Origin: Mastigocoleus sp.
GTDB taxonomy: Bacteria; Cyanobacteriota; Cyanobacteriia; Cyanobacteriales; Nostocaceae
Assembly: GCA_050042865.1 (NCBI GenBank)
Contig: JBHJJE010000084.1
Location: 1-64,000 of the forward strand
Length of the DNA: 64,000 bases
Direction: 5' to 3'
Under the pieces are notes generated by a model. That model ran no database searches, had not been told where the DNA came from, and saw nothing but the letters and a program-made list of their open reading frames with translations. This document shows, piece after piece, positions 15,012 to 41,883 of the stretch. The translations under genes and the position numbers were made by a program. Each line of letters opens with the position of its first letter. Position 1 is the first letter of the stretch.

Positions 15012-16970
15012 ATGACTCAGAAACTTGCAATCGTGATTAGTGGTGCTGTATCTTTAGGCAGCTATGAAGCAGGAGTACTATATGAAACAATTGAAGCGAT
15101 CGCTCAACATAACGAGCATCCCGATACTACTGAAGAACAGAAGATTGAGATAGACGTAATTACGGGAGCTTCTGCTGGAGCAATGATTGCTTGTATGTTA
15201 ACTCAGAAGCTACTGTTTGAGGCAGATGCTTTGCGCAACGATCCTTATAATAATGATTTATATAATGCTTGGGTAGAAGATGTAGATATCGAAAAGTTCT
15301 TACAAATTAAAGAAAATGATGACCCTGCAAAGTTTCTTTTGTCTTCGCAAACGGTTAAAGAAATAGGATACAAGTATCTTTTGGATAGATATAATTCTAA
15401 CTCAGCTAAACCAATTCAGACCCATCCAGGCACTGCTAGTTATGGTATTAGTCTGGGAATTGCCATGTCAAATCTAAATGGATTTGACTTTGAGAAAAAG
15501 CCTACTGAATATCAAGCCATTGATAATAGTCCAAAGAATTTATCTAATGGTAGTTCTTTTAAATATACTCAACATAAAGACTGTTTTACAACCGAAATCA
15601 AACCGGGGATAGAATACGACCAAAAATCGATTTGGGAGAAAATAGAAGAGATAGGACGTTCATCAGGTGCATTTCCCTTTGCTTTTAGCGTAGTAGATAT
15701 TGAACGCAAACCTGATGAAGAAGAAATATATCAAGATGCAATCGATTTCTCTCAACCCAAAAAGTTTACTTATACTGACGGTAGCGTCTTTGAAAATGAA
15801 CCTTTCGGAATAGCAAAGTCTTTGGTTAATAAGATAGATACAAAACCAACAGATTACGAAAATCGTTTTTATCTTTATATTGCTCCAGGACTACAAGAAT
15901 CTGAGGGTGAGGAGGAAGAGAATAAAGAGAATGAATTTAGCGCATCTAATGCAAATTATCTTACAACAGCAAAAGCACTTGTGGGAGCAGTTTATAATCA
16001 AGCTAAGTTCCAAGACTGGATTAGAACTCAGGAAGTTAATCAAAAAATTCGTAAATTTGATGTAGAAGCTATTAAACTCAAAGAAATTTTAGAAGAAAAC
16101 CAGTCCTTAAAAGAGAAGCTAAATGATGTTTCTACGGAACTTTTGAATGTACTATACAATGATAATCACAATTCTTCAGAAAAAGATTATCAAAGACTTA
16201 AAGAGCAATTTGAAACTGGCTATAACGACTTAAAAAACCGAAAAGACCAAAGTTTAGCTGATACTTGGGTGAAAATTGTCCAGGTCTTAGAAAAAGCTGC
16301 TGATTTAGGCGATCGCGATATTATGAAAATATATGCTATTACCTCTACAAAAGAAGAGTTGGTGGGTGAAGAGTTAGGTTCTTTTCTAGGTTTTTTTGAT
16401 AGGGAACTCAGACATCGCGATTATGAGACTGGACGGAGAAATGCTGTCAAATCTTTGCAGAGAATTCAAGATTATAATAAATTATCTAGAGATAGCTCGC
16501 GGACAGATGAAACAAGAATTAATCAAGAATATAAAAAATCAATTATTGAAAATGATGAGAATCAAAGCCATAGAGAAATTTATTTTACAAACTTTGAGCT
16601 AGAGAATAAATCACTTTTGCCTTCAATAGATCCAGAAGTTGATTTTGTTGCAGATGTTCTGAATCAAGAAGATAAAATTCGCAACATATCTAATGATTTT
16701 GCAAAAGTTTTAAGTAAACTTATATATACACTAATAGTATATGCATTTCGAGGTAAGGATATTACACAACCTGAAGATTTAGTTTCTAAAAACTTATATT
16801 CGGATAATTCATCTACTCAGAAGAATAATAATATATTTGCCTTTATCATCAAGTTATTGCCATTAGAAGGTCTGTTAAAAGTATTCATAATTTTATTGGA
16901 AAAAGTCATAGACTTTCTAGTTTTTAGAGTTATCAATAAGTGGTTAAGGGGAAGAAAATTAGAACCATAA
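15012..16970 (+). CDS. patatin-like phospholipase with ~350-aa coiled-coil/hydrophobic C-terminal extension
   Basis: Oxyanion-hole glycine motif SGAVSLGSYEAG, GASAGA (GxSxG nucleophile), DGSV (catalytic Asp of DGA/G); C-terminal 300+ aa K/E-rich with a terminal hydrophobic segment. Confidence 0.75.
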   Translation: MTQKLAIVISGAVSLGSYEAGVLYETIEAIAQHNEHPDTTEEQKIEIDVITGASAGAMIACMLTQKLLFEADALRNDPYNNDLYNAWVEDVDIEKFLQIKENDDPAKFLLSSQTVKEIGYKYLLDRYNSNSAKPIQTHPGTASYGISLGIAMSNLNGFDFEKKPTEYQAIDNSPKNLSNGSSFKYTQHKDCFTTEIKPGIEYDQKSIWEKIEEIGRSSGAFPFAFSVVDIERKPDEEEIYQDAIDFSQPKKFTYTDGSVFENEPFGIAKSLVNKIDTKPTDYENRFYLYIAPGLQESEGEEEENKENEFSASNANYLTTAKALVGAVYNQAKFQDWIRTQEVNQKIRKFDVEAIKLKEILEENQSLKEKLNDVSTELLNVLYNDNHNSSEKDYQRLKEQFETGYNDLKNRKDQSLADTWVKIVQVLEKAADLGDRDIMKIYAITSTKEELVGEELGSFLGFFDRELRHRDYETGRRNAVKSLQRIQDYNKLSRDSSRTDETRINQEYKKSIIENDENQSHREIYFTNFELENKSLLPSIDPEVDFVADVLNQEDKIRNISNDFAKVLSKLIYTLIVYAFRGKDITQPEDLVSKNLYSDNSSTQKNNNIFAFIIKLLPLEGLLKVFIILLEKVIDFLVFRVINKWLRGRKLEP

Positions 16971-17314: not shown

Positions 17315-18820
17315 TTAACTGATAGCAAAAAAACTTCCTACTAAACCCAATACAATCAAGCCTCCCAAGAGATATAACATTACAGTAGTTCGATTACTTT
17401 TAGTTAAAATTTCTGAGTAAGATAACTCATGATTTTGAATTAGTAAAAAAGAGTGGTTATTAAACAAGAATGGTAACGCACGACTTAATAAAAAACGTAG
17501 AAAAAAGTTGATACTCCACAATCTTTTTTGGAAAGGATTTTGATTATATTGCCAAGGATAACTTACTTGAGCTAAACGAATTAGAGCTTTTATATTAGGT
17601 TGACGTAAGTTTTCATAACGAGGAAGTGTTTGAGCTAAATTATCTGAGTTTTCTGCTAACGCTTCATATAGAAGATAAACGTCTTCTAAAGCGGAATTTA
17701 CCCCTTGTCCTATATCGGGAGGAAAACAATGGACTGCATCACCTAGTAAAATGACTGCTGTTCCTTGATTCTCATCGGGTTCTCCCCAGATTTTATGTAG
17801 TCCTGAACAATATTGAGGAATTGGGAAACTTCCACCCTGACTATTTGTAAATCTAGCTATTTCTTGGGGAGATACAATTTTTTCTAGAGGAATTTGAGGA
17901 AAAGCTTCTTTGAGAAAATTATCAACTTCTTCTTCGGTTGTCAATTTCCAAATTGCATGGTCTGGGTAAGTAATAATATTTGCTGTTCTGGGTGTATGAG
18001 GATTTTTGAAGGGTAATAAACCCAGAGAAAGTGCTTTTTTAGGTTCCTTAAAGGTGGATCTAATTGCATAAGCCATTGTAGACTCAGATACATCTCCTTC
18101 TTGGTCTGATAAAGGAAACTGAGGAGGTAGGGTTAAAACTTTGTACCTTAAACCAGAACTAGGAGAAGGAAATTTCTGCATCTCGAAGGAGTCAGATTCA
18201 CTTTCGCTTTCATGAAGAGTTTGACGAACAATGGAATTTAAACCGTCACAACCTACTATTAAAGTTGGATGAAAAGAATATTTCTTCTGGTCTGTAGATT
18301 CAGAAATAGATTGAGCAGTTATTTCTAGATTACTAGAATCTAAATTACTAGAATCTTGTTTAATTTCCACACATTCAGTCTGAAACAAAACTTTAATTGA
18401 GTCTTGCCAATTTTGCTCTATTTCTTGATATAACAATTGTAAAAAAGCAGGTCTGGGTAACCAATAAGCTGTTTTGCGATCGCTATCAGCAATAGGTAGT
18501 TTATTAACAGTGCGTTTACCGTCCTTCTGAATCAGTGTCAGATAAAATTCGGTATTCGGGACGCTCAAAGTCGCTAATTTTGAAGTAATATCAAACAAGT
18601 CGGTTAGCTTTTGTCCCCGACCATCAATTTGATAATTAAAGGATTTATCAGGTTCGTAATAATCTGCCGATGGTCTTTTCTCTAGAACAGTAACATCTTT
18701 CCAGCCCCTTTTAGCTAACATTAATGCTGTTCCTAGTCCCGTGGGACCTCCTCCAACAATTACAACTTTTCCCTTATGATTATCCCTCACGGTCGGTCTT
18801 TCTATATTATTATTTGTCAT
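17315..18820 (-). CDS. FAD-dependent monooxygenase (kynurenine 3-monooxygenase-like), C-terminal membrane anchor
   Basis: GXGXXG VVIVGGGPTGLGTA, GCDGLNSIVR, GDAVHCFPPDIGQGVNSALEDV (FAD-binding motif 2); hydrophobic C-terminus. Confidence 0.7.
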   Translation of the reverse strand: MTNNNIERPTVRDNHKGKVVIVGGGPTGLGTALMLAKRGWKDVTVLEKRPSADYYEPDKSFNYQIDGRGQKLTDLFDITSKLATLSVPNTEFYLTLIQKDGKRTVNKLPIADSDRKTAYWLPRPAFLQLLYQEIEQNWQDSIKVLFQTECVEIKQDSSNLDSSNLEITAQSISESTDQKKYSFHPTLIVGCDGLNSIVRQTLHESESESDSFEMQKFPSPSSGLRYKVLTLPPQFPLSDQEGDVSESTMAYAIRSTFKEPKKALSLGLLPFKNPHTPRTANIITYPDHAIWKLTTEEEVDNFLKEAFPQIPLEKIVSPQEIARFTNSQGGSFPIPQYCSGLHKIWGEPDENQGTAVILLGDAVHCFPPDIGQGVNSALEDVYLLYEALAENSDNLAQTLPRYENLRQPNIKALIRLAQVSYPWQYNQNPFQKRLWSINFFLRFLLSRALPFLFNNHSFLLIQNHELSYSEILTKSNRTTVMLYLLGGLIVLGLVGSFFAIS

Positions 18821-18908: not shown

Positions 18909-20231
18909 TTAAAAAATAAATATTACTTCTATATTCCACTTTTTCCCATCACGGACTATTTCAATCTCTTGGATAAATTCCCGCAGATAAAATCTTCTTT
19001 CGGATTCTGATAAATCTAGCCAAAACTGTGGAATCGAAACTAAGTTTGCGATGGAATTTAAGTTAGCTGGTGGTAGGGTAGCAAGTTTAGCCTCTAGTGC
19101 TGATATTTCTGTACGTATTTTATAAGTTCTTAGTTTAGCTGTTTGCGTGTCTAATATTTCTGTTTTTAATAAATTTGGTATTGTTTCTAATATTTTATGT
19201 TGATTTTCTATGGATGCAGCTATATTTTTTTTAACTGTATCTAGCTGGGGAAAGTCAATTCCTGCAACTGCATTCATTAAGCTTTCACATACTTCTTTAA
19301 TAGTAGCTTCTAATACTTCTTGGTAAGAAATTGCACTGCATTTGGGATTTTGAGAACATTTTATGGGACGTAAGTAGAGATATTCTGTTTTTTTATGACG
19401 AATAGTAACGCGAGTAATAGTCATTTTGGACTGACATTTTTTACACCGGACTAAACCAGCAAGAGAACGAGGAGCGCTAGCTGTACGTCTGGGTAAACGA
19501 CTATTGCGACGTAGCAATCTATCTATTTGTGCTGCTTCTTCCCTAGAAATAATTGGTGTATGGGTATTACAAATAATTTCATTATTGCAATAAGCTGTAT
19601 CTCCCCTATATACAGGATTGCTTAACCATCTGCGTCCGGTTGTGACAGAAATCTTTTTTCCATACCTTTTAGCTAAATAGCGGACAGCACCCCTCAAGGA
19701 ACCATATAGTAAAAAATTCTCAAAGAAATCCTTGACTATACCAGATGTACTTCTATCTATCGAGTATTTTCCCTTAGCTCGACGGTATCCATAGGGAACC
19801 TTACCTGGAGGAGTAACTGTATCTAAGCGATTACGTGCATGACCTTGACGAATGCGATCGCTACGCTGCTGAGACTGAACTTCATTGAGTAATTTGAGTA
19901 AGTCAGCTTGGGAATCATTGCTTGAGAGAGGGATTTTTTGCGAAGCATTATAACCCTGTTCTAATGCAATCGGGGTAATTCCCATTGCTTCTAGTTTTCC
20001 CAGGTTCGCAGCAATATTTGTAATGTTGTTTCCTAATTCGTTTAAGCGTCGAACTAGTAAATAATCGGGAGTATCTCTTCTAGAATCCTCTAATAACTGT
20101 TGCAGTTGCAAACGATTGTTAGATGAGTTTGCAAAGTCTTGATATGTTTTTTCAACCTCCCATCCCCAACTTTCAATATCTGGTGCAGCTTCTAAAAGTG
20201 GGTCTGAGTAGGTATAGGCAAAAATTCTCAT
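18909..20231 (-). CDS. large serine recombinase (resolvase N-domain + recombinase domain + zinc ribbon), XisF-like
   Basis: N-terminal resolvase-like domain; recombinase-domain motif GRRWLSNPVYRGD; Cys-rich zinc-ribbon CKKCQSKM...CSQNPKC. Confidence 0.75.
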   Translation of the reverse strand: MRIFAYTYSDPLLEAAPDIESWGWEVEKTYQDFANSSNNRLQLQQLLEDSRRDTPDYLLVRRLNELGNNITNIAANLGKLEAMGITPIALEQGYNASQKIPLSSNDSQADLLKLLNEVQSQQRSDRIRQGHARNRLDTVTPPGKVPYGYRRAKGKYSIDRSTSGIVKDFFENFLLYGSLRGAVRYLAKRYGKKISVTTGRRWLSNPVYRGDTAYCNNEIICNTHTPIISREEAAQIDRLLRRNSRLPRRTASAPRSLAGLVRCKKCQSKMTITRVTIRHKKTEYLYLRPIKCSQNPKCSAISYQEVLEATIKEVCESLMNAVAGIDFPQLDTVKKNIAASIENQHKILETIPNLLKTEILDTQTAKLRTYKIRTEISALEAKLATLPPANLNSIANLVSIPQFWLDLSESERRFYLREFIQEIEIVRDGKKWNIEVIFIF

Positions 20232-31492: not shown

Positions 31493-34132
31493 ATGACGAC
31501 CTCTCAGGAGAGGATTATCCCAACCGATCTGCGTTCGGAGATGTCCCGGTCTTATCTAGAATACGCAATGAGCGTAATTGTAGGTCGGGCATTACCAGAT
31601 GCCAGGGATGGTCTTAAACCTGTGCATCGCCGCATTTTATACGCCATGCACGAATTGGGGTTAACCTCAGACCGTCCTTTTAGAAAGTGTGCCCGTGTAG
31701 TGGGGGAAGTATTAGGTAAGTACCACCCCCACGGTGATACGGCAGTGTATGATGCCTTAGTACGAATGGCACAGGATTTTTCCATGAGATCGCCATTGAT
31801 CCAAGGGCATGGTAACTTTGGCTCTGTGGATAACGATCCTCCAGCTGCGATGCGATATACAGAATGTCGCTTGCAAGCTTTGACAAGTGCTGCTTTACTC
31901 CAAGATATTGAGTCAGAAACAGTTGATTTTGCTGATAACTTTGATGGTTCACAACAAGAACCGACAGTTCTACCAGCAAGGATTCCACAGTTATTACTCA
32001 ATGGTTCTTCCGGTATTGCAGTGGGAATGGCAACTAACATTCCTCCCCATAATTTAGGTGAATTAATTGATGGTGTAGTTGCTCTGATAGAGAATTCCGA
32101 AATTACAGATTTGGACTTAATGAAGCACATCCCAGGACCTGATTTTCCTACAGGAAGTCAGATTTTGGGAACATCTGCAATTAAAGAAGCTTACACCACC
32201 GGACGGGGTTCAATAACCATGCGGGGTGTAGCAACAATTGAAACCATTGAACAGCGTGGAAGACCTGATAAAGATGCAATAATTGTTACCGAGCTTCCCT
32301 ATCAAACCAACAAAGCTGGAATGATCGAAAAGATAGCGGAGTTGGTAAATGATAAGAGAATCGATGGAATTTCTGATATTCGTGACGAAAGCGATCGCGA
32401 CGGGATGCGGATAGTCATCGAACTCAAGCGCGATGCTTATCCGAGGGTGGTTTTAAATAATCTCTATAAACAAACCCCGCTACAAACAAACTTCGGTGCA
32501 AATATGTTGGCTTTAGTAGATGGGGAACCCCAACTGCTGACCATCAAGAAATTTTTGGAAGTCTTTATAGATTTCCGCATCGAAGCAATTACCCGCAGGA
32601 CCCAATACGAACTTCGCAAAGCTGAAGAACGGGACCATATATTGCAGGGTTTATTAATTGCTCAGTCTCAGTTGGACTCAATTATTGCTCTTATTCGTAG
32701 TGCACCTGATGCACCGAGTGCAAAAGGAGAATTAATTTCGAGCTATGGTCTATCAGAAGTACAAGCAGATGCAATTTTGCAAATGCAGTTACGTCGTTTA
32801 ACAGCATTAGAAGCAGATAAAATCCGTCGAGAGCACGATGATTTACAAACTTTAATTGCTGATTTACGAGATATTTTAGCTAAGAGGGAAAGAATATTAG
32901 AAATCATTAAAGAAGAAGTTGAGCAAATAAAAACAACCCATGCAACACCAAGACGTACAGTTATTACCCATAGCGAAGGTGACTTACACGACCAAGACTT
33001 GATTGCAAATGAGAAAGCAATCATTCTTCTCACCGAACAAGGTTATATAAAAAGAATGCCGGTAAATACCTTTGAAGCTCAAAGTAGAGCTACTCGCGGT
33101 AAAGCTGCGGCAAAAGTTAAAGATAACGACACAATAGAACACTTCTTAACTTGTTGCGACCATGATAGCGTTCTATTTTTTAGCGAACGAGGAGTAGTAT
33201 ACTGCCTGAAGGCTTATCAAATACCCATTGGTTCTCGTACTAGTCGGGGTACTCCCATAGTACAAATGCTTCCTATCCCCAAGGAAGAGAAAATTACTTC
33301 TCTAGTTCCGGTAACAGAGTTTAGCAGTGACGAATATTTAGTCATGTTAACTCGTGGAGGTAATATCAAAAAAACTGCACTAGCAGCATTTAGTAATATC
33401 CGTTCCAATGGTTTAATTGCAATTTCTCTAGAAGAAGGCGATCAGTTACGATGGGTAAGACGCGCAAGAGCTGAAGACAGCGTAATTGTAGGTTCTAGGA
33501 AAGGAATGGCAATTCACTTCAAATGCAGTCACGAACAATTGCGTCCTTTAGGTCGAGCAACTAGGGGAGTAAAGTCCATGAAACTGCGACGGGATGGAGA
33601 CGAACTGGTAGGGATGGACATCTTACCAGCATCAGTACTTGCCACCTTAAATTTGGAAAATAACCAAATCGATGCTCAAATTGATACTCAGGTAGAAGAA
33701 GTTGAAATCGATACTCAAGTAGAAGAAGTTGAAACTGAAGAAGCAACAGAAATTAGTTCAGGTAATGAAACCGGACTTTGGGTATTAGTAATTACAACTG
33801 GAGGTTACGGAAAACGCGTACCCGTCGAACAATTTAGATTGCAAAATCGAGCCGGACAGGGTTTAATGGCTACTAAATTCAAGAATAAGAATGCCGAAGA
33901 CCAAATGGCAACCCTGCATATTGTCAATGACGAAGATGAGATTATGATGGTGACAAATCGCGGTATTATTATCCGTCAAGCAGTTAACGCCATATCTATC
34001 CAATCACGAGCTGCAACTGGAGTTCGGGTACAGCGTCTTGATAAAGCAGATGCAATTACAGGTGTTGCAATTGTCCCACCAGATACAGTTGATGACACAG
34101 AAACAGACGACGAAGAATACGAAGAAGACTAA
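31493..34132 (+). CDS. gyrA: DNA gyrase subunit A (with an acidic insertion containing a 27-bp in-frame tandem duplication)
   Basis: [21 protein letters not shown], active-site region AAMRYTE, six C-terminal beta-pinwheel repeats; insert ...[22 protein letters not shown] at about 33.65-33.76 kb. Confidence 0.95.
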
Positions 34133-34156: not shown

Positions 34157-35764
34157 GTGATGAGTTTAGATATTTCTCGATTTTGGAAAACTCAAAGCTT
34201 CGTGCTCCTTATATCCTTAGTCAGTGGTATTTTGATGGGAGTAACTGTTGCTCCCGTAAATGCCTTTTTTTTCGCGTGGTTAGCATTTGCACCTTTTTGG
34301 GTGTTAGTGACTCAAAACCGCACTCATAATCGTACATGGTTAATTGCTTTTTGCTGGGGAATAGGTTATTACGGCTTTACTTTAGCCTGGATAACCGGTA
34401 TTCATCCCATGACTTGGATGGGAGTTCCTTGGGTTGCAAGTCTGGCGATCGCGGTTTTTTGTTTGACCTTCATTACCATGTGGGGTACAGCTTTAGCGAT
34501 TACCTGGTCGATTATTTTTCGCTGGATAGCTACGAAAAAATTAGTAACTGACAATGGATTTATTCGAGTTTTAATTGGTACTGCTTTGTGGTGTACCCTA
34601 GAAGCAATTTGGAGTAGCGGACCATTATGGTGGAGTACTCTTGCTTATACACAGAGTCCCCATAACCTAGTAATTTTACATCTAGGTCAAATTTCTGGTA
34701 CTACTACCGTCACTGCAACAATTGTAGCAGTTAACGGTTTGATAGCAGAATCTTGGATAAAGCTAAGAAATAAACAATCCAGAAATAATCAAGTAAATCA
34801 AACAAATCAAACAAATCAAACAAATCACAAGATTCTTGCACTGAGTGCTTTTTTGTTATTTACCACATCCCACCTCTTAGGTTTTTGGCTATATGGTATT
34901 CCCCTCAATGATTCACCATCATCAGCTCTGAAAGTTGGGATTATTCAGGGTAACGTACCCAATAAAATTAAACTGAAACCAGAAGGATTTCGACGAGCGA
35001 TCGCTGGTTATACCGAAGGATATTTAGACTTAGTAAACCAAGGTGTAGAAGCAGTACTTACACCAGAAGGAGCATTACCATTTTACGAAGACGAGATAGT
35101 AAAAAGTTCCTTAGTTGCAGCAGTTAAAGATAAAGGTATAACAGCATGGATTGGGGGTTTCGGTTCTCGAAAAGATAAATCTACCTATACCAACAGCTTA
35201 TTTACATTTACAGCAGATGGTGAGATTTTCAGCCGTTATGATAAAGCAAAGCTAGTACCTTTAGGGGAATACGTACCCTTCCGAAATATTATTGGTGGAT
35301 TAGTCAGACGTTTATCACCATTAGATGAACATCAAGTTCCCGGAAGTCAGGAGCAAATATTTAATACCCCATTTGGAAAAGCGATCGCGGTTATTTGTTA
35401 TGGTTCCGCATTCCCAGAACTGTTTCGATATCAAGCAGCAGCAGGGGGAGAATTCATTCTCAGTTCAGCAAATAACTCTCACTATTCAGAATCAATGCCA
35501 GCTCAACATCATGCTCAAGATATCATGAGAGCAATTGAAACCGATAGATGGGCAGTTAGAGCAACAAATACAGGGTATTCCAGCATTGTAGACCCTCATG
35601 GTAAAACATTATGGTTATCGGGAATAGATATTTATCAAATCCATGCAGATACAGTTTATCGTCGGCAGACTCAAACTTTATATGTGCGTTGGGGTGATTG
35701 GTTAACTCCTGTATTATTATTTCTAGCTGGTCTGAGTTGGTTTTTGGAAACTAGAAGAGTGTAG
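34157..35764 (+). CDS. lnt: apolipoprotein N-acyltransferase (Lnt): N-terminal polytopic domain + C-terminal CN-hydrolase domain
   Basis: 6+ TM helices then nitrilase-like domain with E/K/C triad context (AVICYGSAFPE); contains NQVNQTNQTNQTNH from tandem 9-mers caaacaaat. Confidence 0.75.
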   Translation: MMSLDISRFWKTQSFVLLISLVSGILMGVTVAPVNAFFFAWLAFAPFWVLVTQNRTHNRTWLIAFCWGIGYYGFTLAWITGIHPMTWMGVPWVASLAIAVFCLTFITMWGTALAITWSIIFRWIATKKLVTDNGFIRVLIGTALWCTLEAIWSSGPLWWSTLAYTQSPHNLVILHLGQISGTTTVTATIVAVNGLIAESWIKLRNKQSRNNQVNQTNQTNQTNHKILALSAFLLFTTSHLLGFWLYGIPLNDSPSSALKVGIIQGNVPNKIKLKPEGFRRAIAGYTEGYLDLVNQGVEAVLTPEGALPFYEDEIVKSSLVAAVKDKGITAWIGGFGSRKDKSTYTNSLFTFTADGEIFSRYDKAKLVPLGEYVPFRNIIGGLVRRLSPLDEHQVPGSQEQIFNTPFGKAIAVICYGSAFPELFRYQAAAGGEFILSSANNSHYSESMPAQHHAQDIMRAIETDRWAVRATNTGYSSIVDPHGKTLWLSGIDIYQIHADTVYRRQTQTLYVRWGDWLTPVLLFLAGLSWFLETRRV

Positions 35765-35784
35765 AAAGAGAGCAAATCTGATAT

Positions 35785-35822
<38 letters not shown>

Positions 35823-36380: not shown

Positions 36381-38279
36381 ATGAATTCCGTATCATCAAA
36401 GAACGAAGAAAATTTTTTACCTATCAATGAGCTAGAAAACTCTAGAGGTAAATACAAATATAACTATACTCGCATTCCACCCATAGCAATGGTGGATGAG
36501 CTTCCAAATGAAGAAAATTTTTCTACTGATTGGTTGCGTTTGGTAGCAAAAGAGTTAAAAGTAATTTTCGTTAATGCTTTAATTGCAAACCGAGGAAATC
36601 AGGGTTCCCAGAAGGTTGATGATGACATCAGATTATTTATTCTAGAAGTCATATTAAAGGGAGCATTACCATTCCAATTAAGTGTTTTTGCAAGGGTAAT
36701 GCAAATTATTCCCAAAATATTGTTGCAAGGAATATCAAAAGATTACCAAGAAATAGACGAATTGTTCTTTTCCGCTCTCAAAGAAAGTGGACTCTCAATT
36801 TTCCGAGATTCTTTCAACCGAATTGAGGAGTTAATTTCTCAAGGACAACCTAGTGGACATGTTGGGAAAATACAGGACTACAATAAGCTGTTTCCTATTA
36901 TGGAACTTCCAGATATTGCAAATACATTCACTGAAGATGAAGTTTTTGCTTATACACGAGTCGCTGGTTATAATCCCGTAGTTATTCAAGTAGTCAAGAA
37001 TTTGGGAGACAGATTTCCAGTTACAGAGGCACAGTATCAAGAAGTAATGGGAAGCGGAGACTCCTTAGCAGCAGCAGGAGAAGAAGGAAGACTTTATTTA
37101 GCTGATTATGGCATTTTAGAAGGTGCAATTAATGGTACATTTCCTAACCAACAGAAGTATATTTGTGCTCCTTTAGCATTATTTGCAGTTCCTAAAAAAG
37201 AAAATGAAAATGACTCTGGTTTAATGCGTCCCGTTGCAATTCAGTGTGGTCAAGACCCAGAAAGTACACCAATTTTAACCCCTAAATCAGACAAATATGC
37301 TTGGTTGTTTGCAAAAACTATAGTCCAAATAGCAGATGCTAATCACCACGAAGCAGTAACTCACTTAGGACGCACTCATCTATTCGTCGGACCTTTTGCG
37401 ATCGCAACCCATCGTCAATTACCAAAACACCATCCCCTACATATTTTGCTAATTCCTCATTTTGCAGGTACTCTTGCAATCAATGATTCAGCTCAAAGGG
37501 TTCTGATAGCTCCTGGTGGTGGTGTTGATGAGTTATTAGCATCCACAATCGATAATTCGCGGGTTTTAGCAGGAGCAGGATTACAAAGTTATGGTTTCAA
37601 TGATGCAATGTTACCAAAACAATTTAAAAAACGTGGTGTGGATGATAGCAAAAAACTGCCAGTATATCCATATCGGGATGATGCTCTACTGATTTGGAAT
37701 GCTATTCATCAGTGGGTTTCAGATTATTTAGGAATTTACTATAAAAACAATAACGATATTCAAAATGATAAATATCTCCAAGCATGGGCTATAGAAGTTG
37801 GGGCTTATAATGGTGGAAGAGTCCCAGATTTTGGTCAAAAAGATGGGGGAATCCAAACTTTAGATTACTTGATTGATGCTGTAACGTTAATTATTTTTAC
37901 TGCTAGTGCTCAACATGCAGCTGTAAATTTTCCTCAAAAAGATATGATGAGTTATGCCCCTGCAATACCTTTAGCAGGCTATCAACCAGCCTCACTTCTG
38001 AAAGATGGAGTTACAGAACAAGACTATCTCAATTTACTTCCACCTTTAGAACAAGCACAAGGACAATTAAATTTAGTTACTTTACTAGGTTCAATTTATT
38101 ATACTAGATTAGGTAATTATGAAGAAGAATACTTTAAGGACAATTTAGTAGAAGAAGCTTTGCAGACATTTCAAAATAGTTTACGGGATATAGAAGACAC
38201 TATTAATCAACGTAATCAAACTCGTCTTACCTATGAATATCTTCTACCTTCAAGAATTCCTCAAAGCATCAATATTTAA
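36381..38279 (+). CDS. lipoxygenase (bacterial mini-LOX lacking PLAT domain, helical N-terminal extension)
   Basis: LOX catalytic-helix motif HEAVTHLGRTHLFVGPFAIATHRQLPKHHPLHILLIPH (two iron-ligand His 5 apart), second ligand motif SAQHAAVNFPQ (His/Asn), C-terminal Ile (…PQSINI). Confidence 0.88.
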   Translation: MNSVSSKNEENFLPINELENSRGKYKYNYTRIPPIAMVDELPNEENFSTDWLRLVAKELKVIFVNALIANRGNQGSQKVDDDIRLFILEVILKGALPFQLSVFARVMQIIPKILLQGISKDYQEIDELFFSALKESGLSIFRDSFNRIEELISQGQPSGHVGKIQDYNKLFPIMELPDIANTFTEDEVFAYTRVAGYNPVVIQVVKNLGDRFPVTEAQYQEVMGSGDSLAAAGEEGRLYLADYGILEGAINGTFPNQQKYICAPLALFAVPKKENENDSGLMRPVAIQCGQDPESTPILTPKSDKYAWLFAKTIVQIADANHHEAVTHLGRTHLFVGPFAIATHRQLPKHHPLHILLIPHFAGTLAINDSAQRVLIAPGGGVDELLASTIDNSRVLAGAGLQSYGFNDAMLPKQFKKRGVDDSKKLPVYPYRDDALLIWNAIHQWVSDYLGIYYKNNNDIQNDKYLQAWAIEVGAYNGGRVPDFGQKDGGIQTLDYLIDAVTLIIFTASAQHAAVNFPQKDMMSYAPAIPLAGYQPASLLKDGVTEQDYLNLLPPLEQAQGQLNLVTLLGSIYYTRLGNYEEEYFKDNLVEEALQTFQNSLRDIEDTINQRNQTRLTYEYLLPSRIPQSINI

Positions 38280-38739
38280 AAATTTTAAAAATAGCTCTTG
38301 TAGCGTTGTTTGTATTGCTGGGAAAATACATAAATAACTATTGTAGTTTTTACGGTCGATAAATGATGAATTAGAATACCATAGTTTACTAAAAGGAAAA
38401 AACAGGTTACAAGAAGCAGAAAAAATATCCTAAACAGCTAGAAGGTCGCGATATTAAGAATTTTTCCTCAAATTCAAAGTTATTGGCAACTACTTCTACA
38501 TATTAAATCATCTATTCAATCATTTACTCGTGAGGCGATCGCGTATTGTAGTTATGTAAAAATATCAACAAAGAATATAAATATTTACTATAAGCAATTA
38601 TTTATAGTTTACCTAGAGTAATTTACAGTTACTTTTAAGATGATGATTTCTCAACTGGATATATTCTAATCCGATAATACATTAGATATTTTCACTTTTT
38701 TGCAATTATCGACTAAATTACCAACAATCAGGGAAAAAA

Positions 38740-40086
38740 ATGGCAATTAAAGAACAAGTAATTAAAGCGCAAAAACGTCAAATCCAACTCACAAGTACTT
38801 TAGCAAAAGTAGGTTATGACAGTGCAATTGGTAAACTACTGCGTTTGCGAGTTTATTATCTAGATGCTTTTATTATGCTCAGAAAATTAAAAAGTTTTCT
38901 GGAAACAGCAAAAGAAAATATCGGAAATAAGTTTTTTGCAGTAGACCAAGCAATTGTTAATACCTCCCACGAAGATGTTAAAGAAATAATGCAAGTCGAA
39001 CCTCAACTACGAGGGAATGATTTAGGTATTATCAGAATATTAGCTCCTAGTTACCTACTCAATAATCCTTTGAGTTTAGGTATGAATGGAACCGAACATA
39101 GCGGTGCTCGTGCGATATTTTTACAAGCTTTACCAGAACCATCCGAAGATATCAAAAAAATTAGCAGTCTAGTTGATGAATGTTTATCTGAAGCTGCAAA
39201 AAAAGGCGAATTACATATTGGTAAAGACTTACCAAGAATGATATTGAAAATTTTGCATGAATTGGTTTTTCAAATTTCACTATCAGATAAAGAAATTACC
39301 GCATCCAATAACTTCATTCAACGTCTATCTTTAGCATCCTTACCAAATTTTATCAGCAAGTACTTACTTTGGATAATTACATCTCCAGTTATCAAACATC
39401 GTAAATATTTAATTGAACAATACCAAAGCTCTTCAAAATGGTCATCTTACTTTGCAATTGGTAGTAGATACGATTTGAATGAACATCAAATAGCCAATAT
39501 CCTTTTTGATATGATTCACATAGCTGGAACCGCAGGTTCTAGTGCGCTTTTAGGTTCTGTAATTGGTGTTCTGTGTCTGGATGAAGAGTTGAGAAATCGA
39601 GTCACATCAGAGGTTAATGATATTTGGGGAGAACAAACAAGCTTAAACTCAAATGCATTAGAAGAATCAAAGTTAATCAACAAAACTATTTTAGAAACCG
39701 CTCGTCTGTATCCTGCAGTTCGATTTGTTAGTCAACTAGCAAAAGAAGAAGGAGAAATCGAAGTCGGAGAAGTAAAGTGTCCTTTCCAAAAAGGTACTCG
39801 TTTACTTGGTTCTATTTTGACAGCAAATAGAGATTCTCAAAGATATGAAAATCCTGAAGAATTTAATATAGAGCGGGATTTTTCAGATATTTTATCGTGG
39901 AACGGGCAGGAACATGAAAGGGCTTGTCCTGGAAGAAGTTTATCTATTGGTTTGATTAATATTTTCTGTTTATATTTATTCAAACAATATAAGTGGGAAT
40001 CAACCACACAAGTGGAATGGGAACTTGAAAGAGTGACTGCTGTAACCCCGAATGATTTGGTCTTACAGGGATTTGCAAAACGATGA
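38740..40086 (+). CDS. cytochrome P450, non-classical (no acid-alcohol pair in I-helix; CYP74-clan-like candidate fatty-acid hydroperoxide-transforming enzyme)
   Basis: ExxR ETARLYPAVRF, PERF-like NPEEFNIERDF, heme-ligand loop WNGQEHERACPGRSLS (Cys-Pro-Gly, 2-aa longer than canonical FxxGxRxCxG); I-helix IHIAGTAGSSALLG lacks D/E-T pair; lies 460 bp downstream of LOX on the same strand. Confidence 0.7.
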   Translation: MAIKEQVIKAQKRQIQLTSTLAKVGYDSAIGKLLRLRVYYLDAFIMLRKLKSFLETAKENIGNKFFAVDQAIVNTSHEDVKEIMQVEPQLRGNDLGIIRILAPSYLLNNPLSLGMNGTEHSGARAIFLQALPEPSEDIKKISSLVDECLSEAAKKGELHIGKDLPRMILKILHELVFQISLSDKEITASNNFIQRLSLASLPNFISKYLLWIITSPVIKHRKYLIEQYQSSSKWSSYFAIGSRYDLNEHQIANILFDMIHIAGTAGSSALLGSVIGVLCLDEELRNRVTSEVNDIWGEQTSLNSNALEESKLINKTILETARLYPAVRFVSQLAKEEGEIEVGEVKCPFQKGTRLLGSILTANRDSQRYENPEEFNIERDFSDILSWNGQEHERACPGRSLSIGLINIFCLYLFKQYKWESTTQVEWELERVTAVTPNDLVLQGFAKR

Positions 40087-40216
40087 TTGACGGATGAGGG
40101 TTAATGGTGGATGGATAATGTATGAGTATTAATTATTACATGTACAGCGCATAAACTATTAATCATCAACTAACAACCATCAACCATTAACCAACAACTA
40201 TCAAGCAACAACTAAA

Positions 40217-40798
40217 ATGACTTTAAAAATTGAGAAGAAACAATTCCAGAATATTGCGACTTGGATGAAACCAGTCAAGGAGACAAATCTACCGGATATC
40301 CTCAAAGGGGTATTCTTCATGGATGGTAATCCCCTTCCTGATGATTGCATCACTATGTATAACTTGGAATGGGATGCAGAAAATAAAGCTTTGTCTTTAC
40401 CAGTTTTCGGAGAAGCACAATGGACTTTTCATACTTCTATTGGGGGACGTATACTACTTATCGGTTCTTGGTTAGCTCGCTTTACCTATACAATTCAATT
40501 TGAAGATGAAGCTGAAGAAGGAAAACTAAGGCGATCGCAAATTATACCTTTTGCATTTGGGATCAGAATTCCGAAATGGATAATTAATCCAACAATGTGT
40601 CAAGAAAAAGACTCTGAAAACGGTGATACTTGGGCACGTACAAATATCTGGTTTGGTATTATTCCTCGTATTGGTAACTATACCCTTCGTAGAATTGTGA
40701 ATGAAGATGGTAGTTATACACCAGCTTTTAAGGATATGCTCAGCGTTGTTGACGAAGAATGTTTAATAGTTGCTTCATCCTCCTCTACAGATAACTAA
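40217..40798 (+). CDS. hypothetical protein, co-directional 130 bp downstream of the P450 (likely third gene of the LOX-P450 unit)
   Basis: 193-aa ORF, predicted beta-rich, no recognisable motif. Confidence 0.5.
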   Translation: MTLKIEKKQFQNIATWMKPVKETNLPDILKGVFFMDGNPLPDDCITMYNLEWDAENKALSLPVFGEAQWTFHTSIGGRILLIGSWLARFTYTIQFEDEAEEGKLRRSQIIPFAFGIRIPKWIINPTMCQEKDSENGDTWARTNIWFGIIPRIGNYTLRRIVNEDGSYTPAFKDMLSVVDEECLIVASSSSTDN

Positions 40799-41274
40799 TA
40801 AGGAAAGTCAAAAAATCAAAATCAGTTATAATACTTAAGTTTGTCAGTTGAATTAATACATTAATAGATGGTTTGAAAATTATGACAACTGATAGGAAAT
40901 AAAATTCCTATTTTTTTTGCTGTTTGAATTCAAAGGTTTGAGTAAACGAAGGTCTGTGAGCTTTCCCTAAATTCACCAGTTTTGTTAGACCCTGTTTATA
41001 AGGACTGTAAATTTAGTATATTTGTATCAACATAGTCACATTAAAGTATCAAGTATGGCAAAATAATATTTGTTGTCTGGACTTCACTTGACTAGTGTTG
41101 TAAAGAAGTTTAATTTTTTTGAGGAAATCGTGATAATTCCCCGCAGGGTGACTACATTTGTTAAGAATATTTGTTTAGAGGTTTGTCTAGAATACTCTAT
41201 TTAGTCAAAAAAACCTAGAATAAATCTAAATTTATTCCAGGTTTACTCTAAATATATATACGCATGTATTCCTT

Positions 41275-41559
41275 TTAAGCTTCCACTTTGATACCTCGCC
41301 AAAATGCTAAATAGTTTTCAAAATGTTTTGCCTTTTCTTTTGCATCGGGGTAATACCAAGCAGCTCCTTTACTGACTTGTTCATCTACTTCAATATCATA
41401 GTAATTGGCAATACCTTTCCAAGGACAGTTAGTATGGGTATCAGTTTCACGGGGATATTCTTTCTTGACTGAGTTTGGGGAAAGTTAATGATTACCTTCA
41501 ACTAATATAGTCTGATCGCTTTGAGCGATTACGGTTCCATTCCAGGTTGCTTTTGCCAT
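41275..41559 (-). pseudogene. DUF427 domain protein with in-frame TAA (Tyr codon to stop) at codon 25
   Basis: MAKATWNGTVIAQSDQTILVEGNH*LSPNSVKKEYPRETDTHTNCPWKGIANYYDIEVDEQVSKGAAWYYPDAKEKAKHFENYLAFWRGIKVEA matches DUF427 consensus (…VEGNYYFPPESV…CPWKG…AWYY…); TAA at 41485-41487 (minus) replaces the conserved Tyr. Confidence 0.7.
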
Positions 41560-41883
41560 AATTCCAGATATACAGAATCTATTGTCTGAATTTAATCTCT
41601 AAAATCGATCACTTTAACAAGTTGATAAATAAGATTATCAACTTAAATAGGTACATCTAGACAAAAAATCTTGAATATTTCATTTTTATACTGTATCTAT
41701 CCTCGCGGAGAAAAAATTTTAGCATTTTTAGTCTAGGACTATTATTTTGTCTTCAACAGTAAAGACAAAAAGCTAAAACAAAGAGTAAGACAGTGTAATA
41801 CTGACGATTGATTTTCCCTTCCCCATCCTGAATGAAAAAGTTTCAGCTTGAAGCAATTTTTTGGTCTAAGAGTGAGGTTATAA

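Follow-up and report, generated by a model that had tools for sequence, protein, structure and literature searches.

The 64,000-nucleotide stretch of DNA analysed here, referred to below as the window (Mastigocoleus sp., contig JBHJJE010000084.1, positions 1 to 64,000), contains three consecutive genes on the plus strand: a gene for an iron lipoxygenase (LOX) at 36381..38279 (632 aa, without a signal peptide), a cytochrome P450 gene at 38740..40086 (448 aa) and, at 40217..40798, a gene for a 193-aa protein of an unnamed family, which is called U193 here. All three open reading frames (ORFs) were confirmed at these positions. The P450 and U193 match proteins of a Mastigocoleus sp. metagenome-assembled genome with 100% identity, which places the window in a filamentous cyanobacterium. 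What bacterial lipoxygenases do biologically is a question of long standing, and the only downstream enzymes known in cyanobacteria are catalase-related hemoproteins. A first-pass annotation of the window, made from the letters alone, had put forward the three genes as a candidate trio for oxylipin or hydroperoxide metabolism. Here, we find that the trio forms a conserved unit and suggest, as a reading that we hold to be reasonably probable, that it is a self-contained oxylipin cassette of filamentous cyanobacteria, in which the hydroperoxide made by the LOX would pass to the P450 and then to the U193 barrel. The comparisons among loci draw on the best 80 of 116 P450 loci from a scan of one genome per species, each taken with 10-kb flanks (81 loci counting the window).

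The first gene encodes a bona fide lipoxygenase, as had been proposed. The protein matches Pfam PF00305 with E=3e-61 (208 bits, cut-off 23.6), and its best solved relatives are the bacterial structures 8x8f and 4g32 (Pseudomonas aeruginosa LOX), with E=1e-121 to 1e-117. All five iron ligands can be recognised: His323 and His328 of the His-x4-His element (HEAVTH, 37347..37364, plus strand), which corresponds to the ligand motif of 8x8f in the alignment, His512 and Asn516 of the His-x3-Asn element (HAAVN, 37914..37928, plus strand), and the C-terminal Ile632 (38274..38276, plus strand), which is the fifth ligand via its carboxylate. The C-terminal Asn-Ile is present in 74/74 LOX orthologues. Ala370, which lies in INDSAQR and which we take to be the Coffa–Brash position, predicts S stereochemistry, that is, an S-type LOX. 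The lipoxygenases of Rivularia, Calothrix and Tolypothrix are described as linoleate 13S-lipoxygenases (Qi et al., 2020, as cited in PMC9498203 and PMC13319228). These characterised enzymes are likely orthologous to the cassette LOX, because Rivularia sp. PCC 7116 carries the trio. No catalase domain was found in the LOX or its neighbouring genes, either by Pfam search or by ORF clustering of the 81 loci. On its 5' side, the LOX gene is preceded by a 616-bp AT-rich gap, which opens with a (TTTA)9 microsatellite at 35783-35818, right after the stop codon of an Lnt-like (apolipoprotein N-acyltransferase) gene.

The second gene follows the LOX on the same strand after a spacer of 460 bp (38280..38739), which is long for the family and not conserved; in an alignment with the three closest loci, no conserved block was found except the ribosome-binding region. 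Its product matches PF00067 (E=3.9e-17; 62.6 bits, cut-off 22.8), only residues 246-431 being matched, and it keeps the elements of a P450 that had been listed for it: the ExxR motif as ETAR 319-322 (39694..39705, plus strand), invariant in an alignment of 22 sequences, the PERF-like motif as PEEF 372-375 (39853..39864, plus strand), and the heme ligand in Cys396-Pro-Gly. Two departures from the canonical pattern had also been claimed, namely the lack of the I-helix acid–alcohol pair and a Cys loop that is two residues longer than usual, and both survived realignment. In three HMMER alignments (the single sequence against CYP76AH1 and against P450 BM3, and the family profile against CYP76AH1), Ala265-Gly266 fall at the acid–alcohol positions, so that the pair is replaced in the I-helix segment FDMIHIAGTAGSS (39505..39543, plus strand), in which His260 is invariant. 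In the alignment with CYP141 (8c9i), Trp387 falls on the canonical Phe of the heme-ligand loop SWNGQEHERACPG (39895..39933, plus strand), and Glu393-Arg394 are the extra residues before the thiolate Cys396. These features hold throughout the family. The I-helix reads AGT[A/L]G[T/S], without the acid–alcohol pair, in 81/81 copies, the loop keeps a constant length with the 2-residue insertion in 81/81 copies, and both FDMIHIAGTAG(T/S)S in the I-helix and SWNGxxHERxCPG in the loop are nearly invariant in the 22-sequence alignment.

A word-index search returned 163 close homologues of the P450, with 58-84% identity among the 120 matches listed. The named ones all belong to Nostocales or Leptolyngbyaceae, and are annotated merely as 'cytochrome P450'. 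The family profile gives only weak matches in the PDB, in the C-terminal half and at no more than 41 bits, and the NCBIfam P450 matches are far under their cut-offs, as with the CYP152 CypC model NF053744, for which the score is 21.3 bits and the cut-off 600. As judged from these profile searches, the P450 is an orphan cyanobacterial family outside the ordinary monooxygenase families. Membership of CYP152 was rejected on the same score and on the presence of Ala-Gly instead of the I-helix Arg-Pro.

The third gene begins 130 bp downstream of the P450, and the description of its product as a beta-rich protein without a family was upheld. No match to U193 was found in Pfam, NCBIfam or, by single sequence and by profile, among PDB sequences. 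The close family has 138 members, of which all the named ones are cyanobacterial and all are 'hypothetical'. The AlphaFold2 model, based on a 32-sequence alignment, has a predicted local distance difference test score (pLDDT) of 87.6 and a predicted template modelling score of 0.86, and consists of an antiparallel beta-barrel and three helices. Foldseek related this model to nitrophorins only, with a probability of about 0.8. The fold class is predicted to be calycin/lipocalin-like, which does not imply homology with a known family. Nitrophorin-like heme binding was considered and rejected, the sole histidine (His72) not being conserved superfamily-wide. Allene oxide cyclase (AOC) is absent from the top 60 structural matches, and no sequence relation to AOC was detected.

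The U193 family extends well beyond cyanobacteria. A search of 1.84 billion representative proteins with the U193 profile returned 305 distant relatives, 119 of them at E<=1e-10, mostly 200-300 aa long and from metagenomes and protist transcriptomes, one being from the foraminiferan Bolivina. Across the superfamily, Gly31, Arg141 and Tyr155 are invariant, while Pro26, Asn38, Trp69 and Gly77 are more than 90% conserved. Gly31 and Asn38, conserved superfamily-wide, belong to the signature GVFFMDGNPLP (40307..40339, plus strand), and the stretch from Arg141 to Tyr155 is encoded at 40637..40681 (plus strand). The latter two residues, invariant in cyanobacterial and eukaryotic homologues, are 93-95% conserved in 118 distant homologues and invariant in a separate superfamily alignment. 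Barrels that bind fatty acids usually anchor the carboxylate by an Arg/Tyr pair, and by analogy we propose that Arg141 and Tyr155 could be the carboxylate anchor of U193. In the window, the roughly 1.1 kb on the 3' side of U193 (40799-41883) has no plus-strand ORF of at least 60 aa, and downstream of U193 a minus-strand hairpin at 41244-41211 has a 15-bp stem followed by a T-run.

Then, do the three genes belong together? That the trio would be conserved in related genomes had been left as a prediction, and it holds. Searching with the window proteins by tblastn, we found U193 directly 3' of the P450 in 79/80 loci, the exception being a contig whose end falls within the P450. Of 73 loci in which a LOX ORF could be called, 71 have it 5' of the P450 in the same orientation. 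When the ORFs of the 81 loci were clustered, the three cassette families occurred in 80, 78 and 74 loci, against 15 for the next commonest neighbour, and the genes flanking the cassette in the window (GyrA, Lnt, HAD-like, GNAT, MutS2) are common only to its closest relative (locus L001). The genes are usually close together, with median gaps of 89 bp between LOX and P450 (73 loci) and 165 bp between P450 and U193, and in five loci the P450 and U193 genes overlap by 4 bp. In addition, the identities of the three proteins to the window copies co-vary over 68 loci (r ~0.8), as expected if the trio is inherited as one unit. Because this gene order recurs in about 70 other genomes with differing flanks, the trio forms a conserved unit, more than chance would give, and this is strongly supported.

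Two copies of the cassette show how far this association extends. In Nostoc flagelliforme CCNUN1, the trio is located on the 327-kb plasmid pNFSY07 (NZ_CP024792.1 76060-80101, locus L085), by an IS982 transposase and a transposase fragment, and the three genes are named 'lipoxygenase family protein', 'cytochrome P450' and 'hypothetical protein' in RefSeq. Such a plasmid-borne copy beside a transposase fits a cassette that moves as a unit. In Mastigocoleus testarum BC008 (LMTZ01000163.1, locus L083:1067-8537; also L084), a divergent second cassette was reached by a word-index search with a profile of the distant U193 relatives, which returned three proteins. Its LOX, P450 and U193 are 41%, 50% and 41% identical to those of the window, respectively, and U193 starts 31 bp after the P450. 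The order is a mini-LOX (552 aa, of another clade), an 863-aa fusion of DAO (FAD oxidoreductase) and ATP-grasp domains, the P450 and the U193-like protein. The P450 retains FDTIHIAGTAGTS and SWNGENIERKCPG, that is, both the I-helix motif and the loop length are kept. LOX, P450 and barrel therefore stay associated despite deep divergence and a change of LOX clade. The DAO-ATP-grasp protein might act on the oxylipin, either by oxidation or by coupling it to an amine. A variant copy was also noted in a Trichormus sp. metagenome-assembled genome (MAG; L070:7993-13405), where a tandem P450 duplication gives the order LOX-P450-P450-U193.

Distant U193 relatives also occur in chytrid fungi. Six multidomain gene models (P0281, P0299, P0352, P0283, P0370 and P0354) combine a heme-thiolate peroxidase with a U193-like barrel, three of them together with a lipoxygenase. 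For example, the 1204-aa protein KAI8619731.1 of Chytriomyces sp. MP71 is composed of Peroxidase_2 (3-206), U193-like (268-423) and Lipoxygenase (862-1183) domains, the 1176-aa protein KAJ3117091.1 of Physocladia obscura has the same order, and all three domains are present in the 1748-aa P0352. Shorter proteins of 690, 544 and 389 aa (Chytriomyces KAI8620479.1, Podochytrium KAJ3059782.1 and P0354, respectively) are of the form Peroxidase_2-U193-like, and a further distant relative, P0314 (1107 aa), has a U193-like domain and a LOX segment. The PCPALN thiolate and EHD motifs of heme-thiolate peroxidases and peroxygenases are intact in the chytrid Peroxidase_2 domains. These fusions are independent evidence for a single pathway in which the barrel, the LOX and the heme-thiolate P450 of cyanobacteria would act, and they suggest that the heme-thiolate partner handles a peroxide. 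The link of the barrel family to LOX and heme-thiolate enzymes in two kingdoms is strongly supported by these domain architectures and gene orders.

Based on these findings, a three-step model can be proposed. In the first step, which is well supported by homology, the LOX would oxygenate a C18 polyunsaturated fatty acid and yield its hydroperoxide. In the second step, we infer that the P450 would bind this hydroperoxide and cleave the O-O bond directly, without O2, NAD(P)H or a redox partner, and so rearrange it. The products would be an allene oxide, an epoxy alcohol, a hemiacetal (leading to aldehydes) or a divinyl ether, as in the chemistry of CYP74, CYP5 and CYP8. For CYP5, CYP8A and CYP74, direct cleavage of the peroxy bond by the ferric enzyme, without redox partners, has been described (PMC9214053). 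In the third step, the U193 barrel would take up the fatty-acid product and either convert it further, as a cyclase or isomerase, or shield and deliver it. The chytrid fungi would follow the same logic within single polypeptides, with the heme-thiolate peroxidase domain in the place of the P450. The earlier suggestion of a LOX-dependent unit that metabolises hydroperoxides is thus supported by the missing acid–alcohol pair, the co-conservation of the genes and the chytrid fusions.

Several observations weigh against this model. The functions of the P450 and U193 families are predicted from sequence and models. Rare P450s that lack the conserved Thr, such as P450eryF, are still monooxygenases. 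The AlphaFold2 model of the P450 is poor (pLDDT 67.9, and below 50 around the heme loop, from the shallow 22-sequence alignment), which makes the active-site geometry unreadable; the Foldseek probability of 1.0 that this poor model gives to many P450s, with BM3 and CYP3A as neighbours, shows the P450 fold only. Since the 460-bp gap between LOX and P450 in the window is among the longest in the family, co-transcription is not assured. Furthermore, four genomes have the P450-U193 pair with no LOX within 10 kb, so the pair can exist without an adjacent LOX: a gene for isoleucyl-tRNA synthetase replaces the LOX 5' of the P450 in three related genomes, those of Calothrix brevissima NIES-22 (L073), Tolypothrix FACHB-123 (L075) and Calothrix anomala FACHB-343 (L077), and the fourth locus is that of a Sphaerospermopsis MAG (L078).

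The relation to CYP74 belongs to the same side of the balance. The family profile matches CYP74A2 (3dam) with E=1.2e-5 and 27.5 bits, which ranks under 5ofq, CYP76AH, CYP152, CYP51 and BM3 and is level with CYP3A4. The hallmarks of CYP74 are a nine-residue Cys-loop insertion and the catalytic Asn321 (PMC6627107). Membership of CYP74 was rejected, the insertion being of two residues and not nine and no preferential profile match being seen. By helical register, seven residues before the Thr-equivalent, the counterpart of Asn321, which faces the peroxide in the I-helix of Arabidopsis allene oxide synthase (AOS), is presumably Ile259, not Asn; Asn253, Asp257 and His260 are invariant near this position in the P450 family alignments. 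The first-pass annotation had read the signature of peroxide-shunt enzymes such as CYP74 in this P450. One half of that reading, the missing acid–alcohol pair, stands, whereas the likeness to CYP74 comes down to functional analogy, with a 2-residue insertion and no sequence affinity. O2 activation appears to have disappeared from this P450 family separately from its loss in CYP74, CYP5 and CYP8.

A bolder version of the model regards the cassette as the bacterial counterpart of the octadecanoid (LOX-AOS-AOC) pathway of plants, assembled from non-orthologous parts, with the P450 as a new class of allene oxide or epoxy-allylic synthase and U193 as a new family of oxylipin cyclases or isomerases. 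We consider this version rather unlikely. If it is true, cyclopentenones or other cyclic oxylipins would be made by a family that is common to cyanobacteria, chytrid fungi (in the form of megaenzymes) and many marine protists.

Could the P450 use the peroxide in another way? CYP152, the fungal unspecific peroxygenases (UPO) and the plant caleosin peroxygenase use peroxides as oxygen donors. The cassette P450 could likewise take the LOX hydroperoxide as an oxygen donor only, epoxidising or hydroxylating a second molecule held or delivered by the barrel while the hydroperoxide is reduced to the alcohol. In PDB and NCBIfam, CYP152 belongs to the best matches of the P450, weak as they are; the P450 shares with it the Cys-Pro-Gly after the ligand and the missing canonical Phe, and the chytrid counterpart is Peroxidase_2, a family that includes peroxygenases. 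However, the Arg-Pro of the CYP152 I-helix, which binds the substrate carboxylate, is replaced by Ala265-Gly266, the CypC model remains at 21 bits against 600, and there is no candidate for the second substrate. This alternative, which differs from hydroperoxide rearrangement solely in the fate of the oxygen atom, seems unlikely to us.

An ordinary monooxygenase is also conceivable, and we rate it an improbable explanation too. In that case, the P450 would hydroxylate or epoxidise a fatty acid or a reduced LOX product with O2 and electrons from a housekeeping ferredoxin, and U193 would be an accessory lipid-binding protein. The absence of redox-partner genes from the cassette is not diagnostic here, because cyanobacterial P450s commonly have no dedicated ones. 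The poor P450 model is placed nearest to the fatty-acid hydroxylase P450 BM3 by Foldseek, and the P450-U193 pair persists without an adjacent LOX in the four genomes above. On the other hand, neither the acid nor the alcohol needed for proton delivery is present in any of the 81 copies, the thiolate loop is altered, and the fungal stand-in for the P450 is a peroxide-dependent heme-thiolate peroxidase that needs no reductase.

The same four genomes would suit a detoxification role, in which the P450 and U193 remove lipid hydroperoxides, whether LOX-made or photo-oxidative, and the barrel scavenges damaged lipids; but a LOX that makes hydroperoxides is unlikely to be kept directly 5' of its detoxifier in about 70 genomes, and fused to it in fungi, and we regard this role as very unlikely. 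Finally, chance adjacency of three functionally unrelated genes, to which the long gaps in the window (460 and 130 bp) and the lack of any promoter or terminator signal that stands out might point, is effectively refuted by the order and strand kept in about 70 genomes with unrelated flanks, by the divergent second cassette of M. testarum, by the plasmid-borne copy and by the domain fusions in fungi. Hydroperoxide rearrangement by the P450 remains the reading that we prefer.

No Rfam match was found across the cassette region, and a promoter and terminator scan was uninformative, giving fewer matches than shuffled sequence. The first-pass annotation had suggested that a patatin-like gene and a monooxygenase gene resembling KMO might feed or modify the fatty acids. 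Both genes exist, the patatin-like ORF at 15012-16970 and the FAD monooxygenase at 17315-18820 on the minus strand, but they are bystanders 20 kb away from the cassette and outside the conserved unit; the role of feeders was rejected, nothing past the trio being conserved. A large serine recombinase with Resolvase, Recombinase and zinc-ribbon domains (18909-20231, minus strand) adjoins the FAD monooxygenase near the patatin-like gene, and this area may be an integrated element unrelated to the cassette. Two housekeeping proteins upstream of the cassette carry low-complexity insertions: the Lnt-like protein (34157-35764) has an insertion of the repeat NQVNQTNQTNQTN, and GyrA (31493-34132) has an acidic repeat and an acidic C-terminal tail.

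The literature search turned up no account of a P450 linked to a LOX in cyanobacteria, nor of U193 proteins or the chytrid fusions, although many subscription papers are outside its coverage and an earlier description is possible. A LOX-associated P450 of cyanobacteria is mentioned neither in a 2026 review of bacterial lipoxygenases (PMC13319228) nor in a 2022 review of algal and cyanobacterial P450s (PMC9214053). We consider it very probable that the cassette makes oxidised fatty-acid signals or defence compounds by a pathway not described before. It is a defined, operon-like unit in about 116 species-level genomes, including those of the culturable Rivularia PCC 7116, Nostoc punctiforme strains and Nostoc flagelliforme. 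The P450 family bears on the evolution of peroxide-rearranging P450s, and the U193 domain family connects operons of cyanobacteria with multidomain LOX enzymes of fungi and with several hundred eukaryotic proteins that carry no annotation. Should the cassette yield allene oxides, cyclopentenones, epoxy alcohols or volatile aldehydes, these compounds could serve Nostocales, many of which are symbionts of plants or lichens, as signals or in defence, and the enzymes would also serve as cofactor-free biocatalysts.

Among known systems, the cassette can be set beside the plant LOX-CYP74-AOC pathway, where the CYP74 enzyme is an AOS, hydroperoxide lyase, divinyl ether synthase or epoxyalcohol synthase. 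In both, a LOX is followed by a heme-thiolate P450 without the acid–alcohol pair and then by a beta-barrel protein of about 190 aa, and the S-type LOX of the cassette probably supplies a 13S-hydroperoxide as well. However, the cassette P450 is not a CYP74, with an insertion of two residues instead of nine, presumably no Asn at the place of Asn321 and no specific affinity (PMC6627107), the barrel shows no detectable relation to AOC by sequence, and the cassette genes are clustered in a bacterial genome. The catalase-related AOS-LOX fusions of Plexaura homomalla, Anabaena/Nostoc PCC 7120 and Acaryochloris marina are similar in that a hydroperoxide-transforming heme enzyme is tied to a LOX and in their occurrence in cyanobacteria. 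There, the heme enzyme has a catalase fold and a Tyr ligand and is fused N-terminally to an R-type mini-LOX, with no third component (PMC6627107, PMC11719350), whereas the cassette has a separate Cys-ligated P450, a full-length S-type LOX and a barrel protein.

Another cyanobacterial system that pairs a fatty-acid dioxygenase with a separately encoded hydroperoxide-transforming hemoprotein is that of Nostoc punctiforme, which consists of a cyclooxygenase-like heme 10S-dioxygenase and a catalase-related 10S-hydroperoxide lyase (PMC13049297); unlike in the cassette, these enzymes are neither LOX nor P450. Self-sufficient P450s that act on the peroxide product of a partner dioxygenase (DOX) are also found in the fungal DOX-CYP fusions (linoleate diol synthase, 8R/9S-DOX-AOS and epoxy alcohol synthase) and in animal CYP5A1 and CYP8A1, which isomerise hydroperoxides or endoperoxides without a reductase (PMC13049297, PMC9214053). 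Their partner is a heme DOX or cyclooxygenase instead of a LOX, they lack a barrel domain, and no sequence affinity to the cassette P450 was detected. The CYP152 enzymes (P450 BSbeta, OleT), which are among the best but still weak matches, use a peroxide, and their I-helix is likewise without the acid–alcohol pair and their long Cys loop likewise closes with CPG, but their peroxide is H2O2, they are not linked to a LOX, and their I-helix Arg-Pro is absent from the cassette P450.

The chytrid Peroxidase_2-U193-like-Lipoxygenase proteins are the sole other interpretable context of U193, and there the domain is again joined with a LOX and a heme-thiolate enzyme that reacts with peroxides. In contrast to the cassette, they are single eukaryotic polypeptides known from gene models alone, their heme-thiolate partner is of the chloroperoxidase/UPO type, and their LOX, a fungal-type enzyme, has Val or Ile as its last residue. 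As a whole, the cassette holds a new P450 family and a new domain family, while its logic matches that of the plant LOX-CYP74-AOC pathway and of the catalase-related AOS-LOX fusions.

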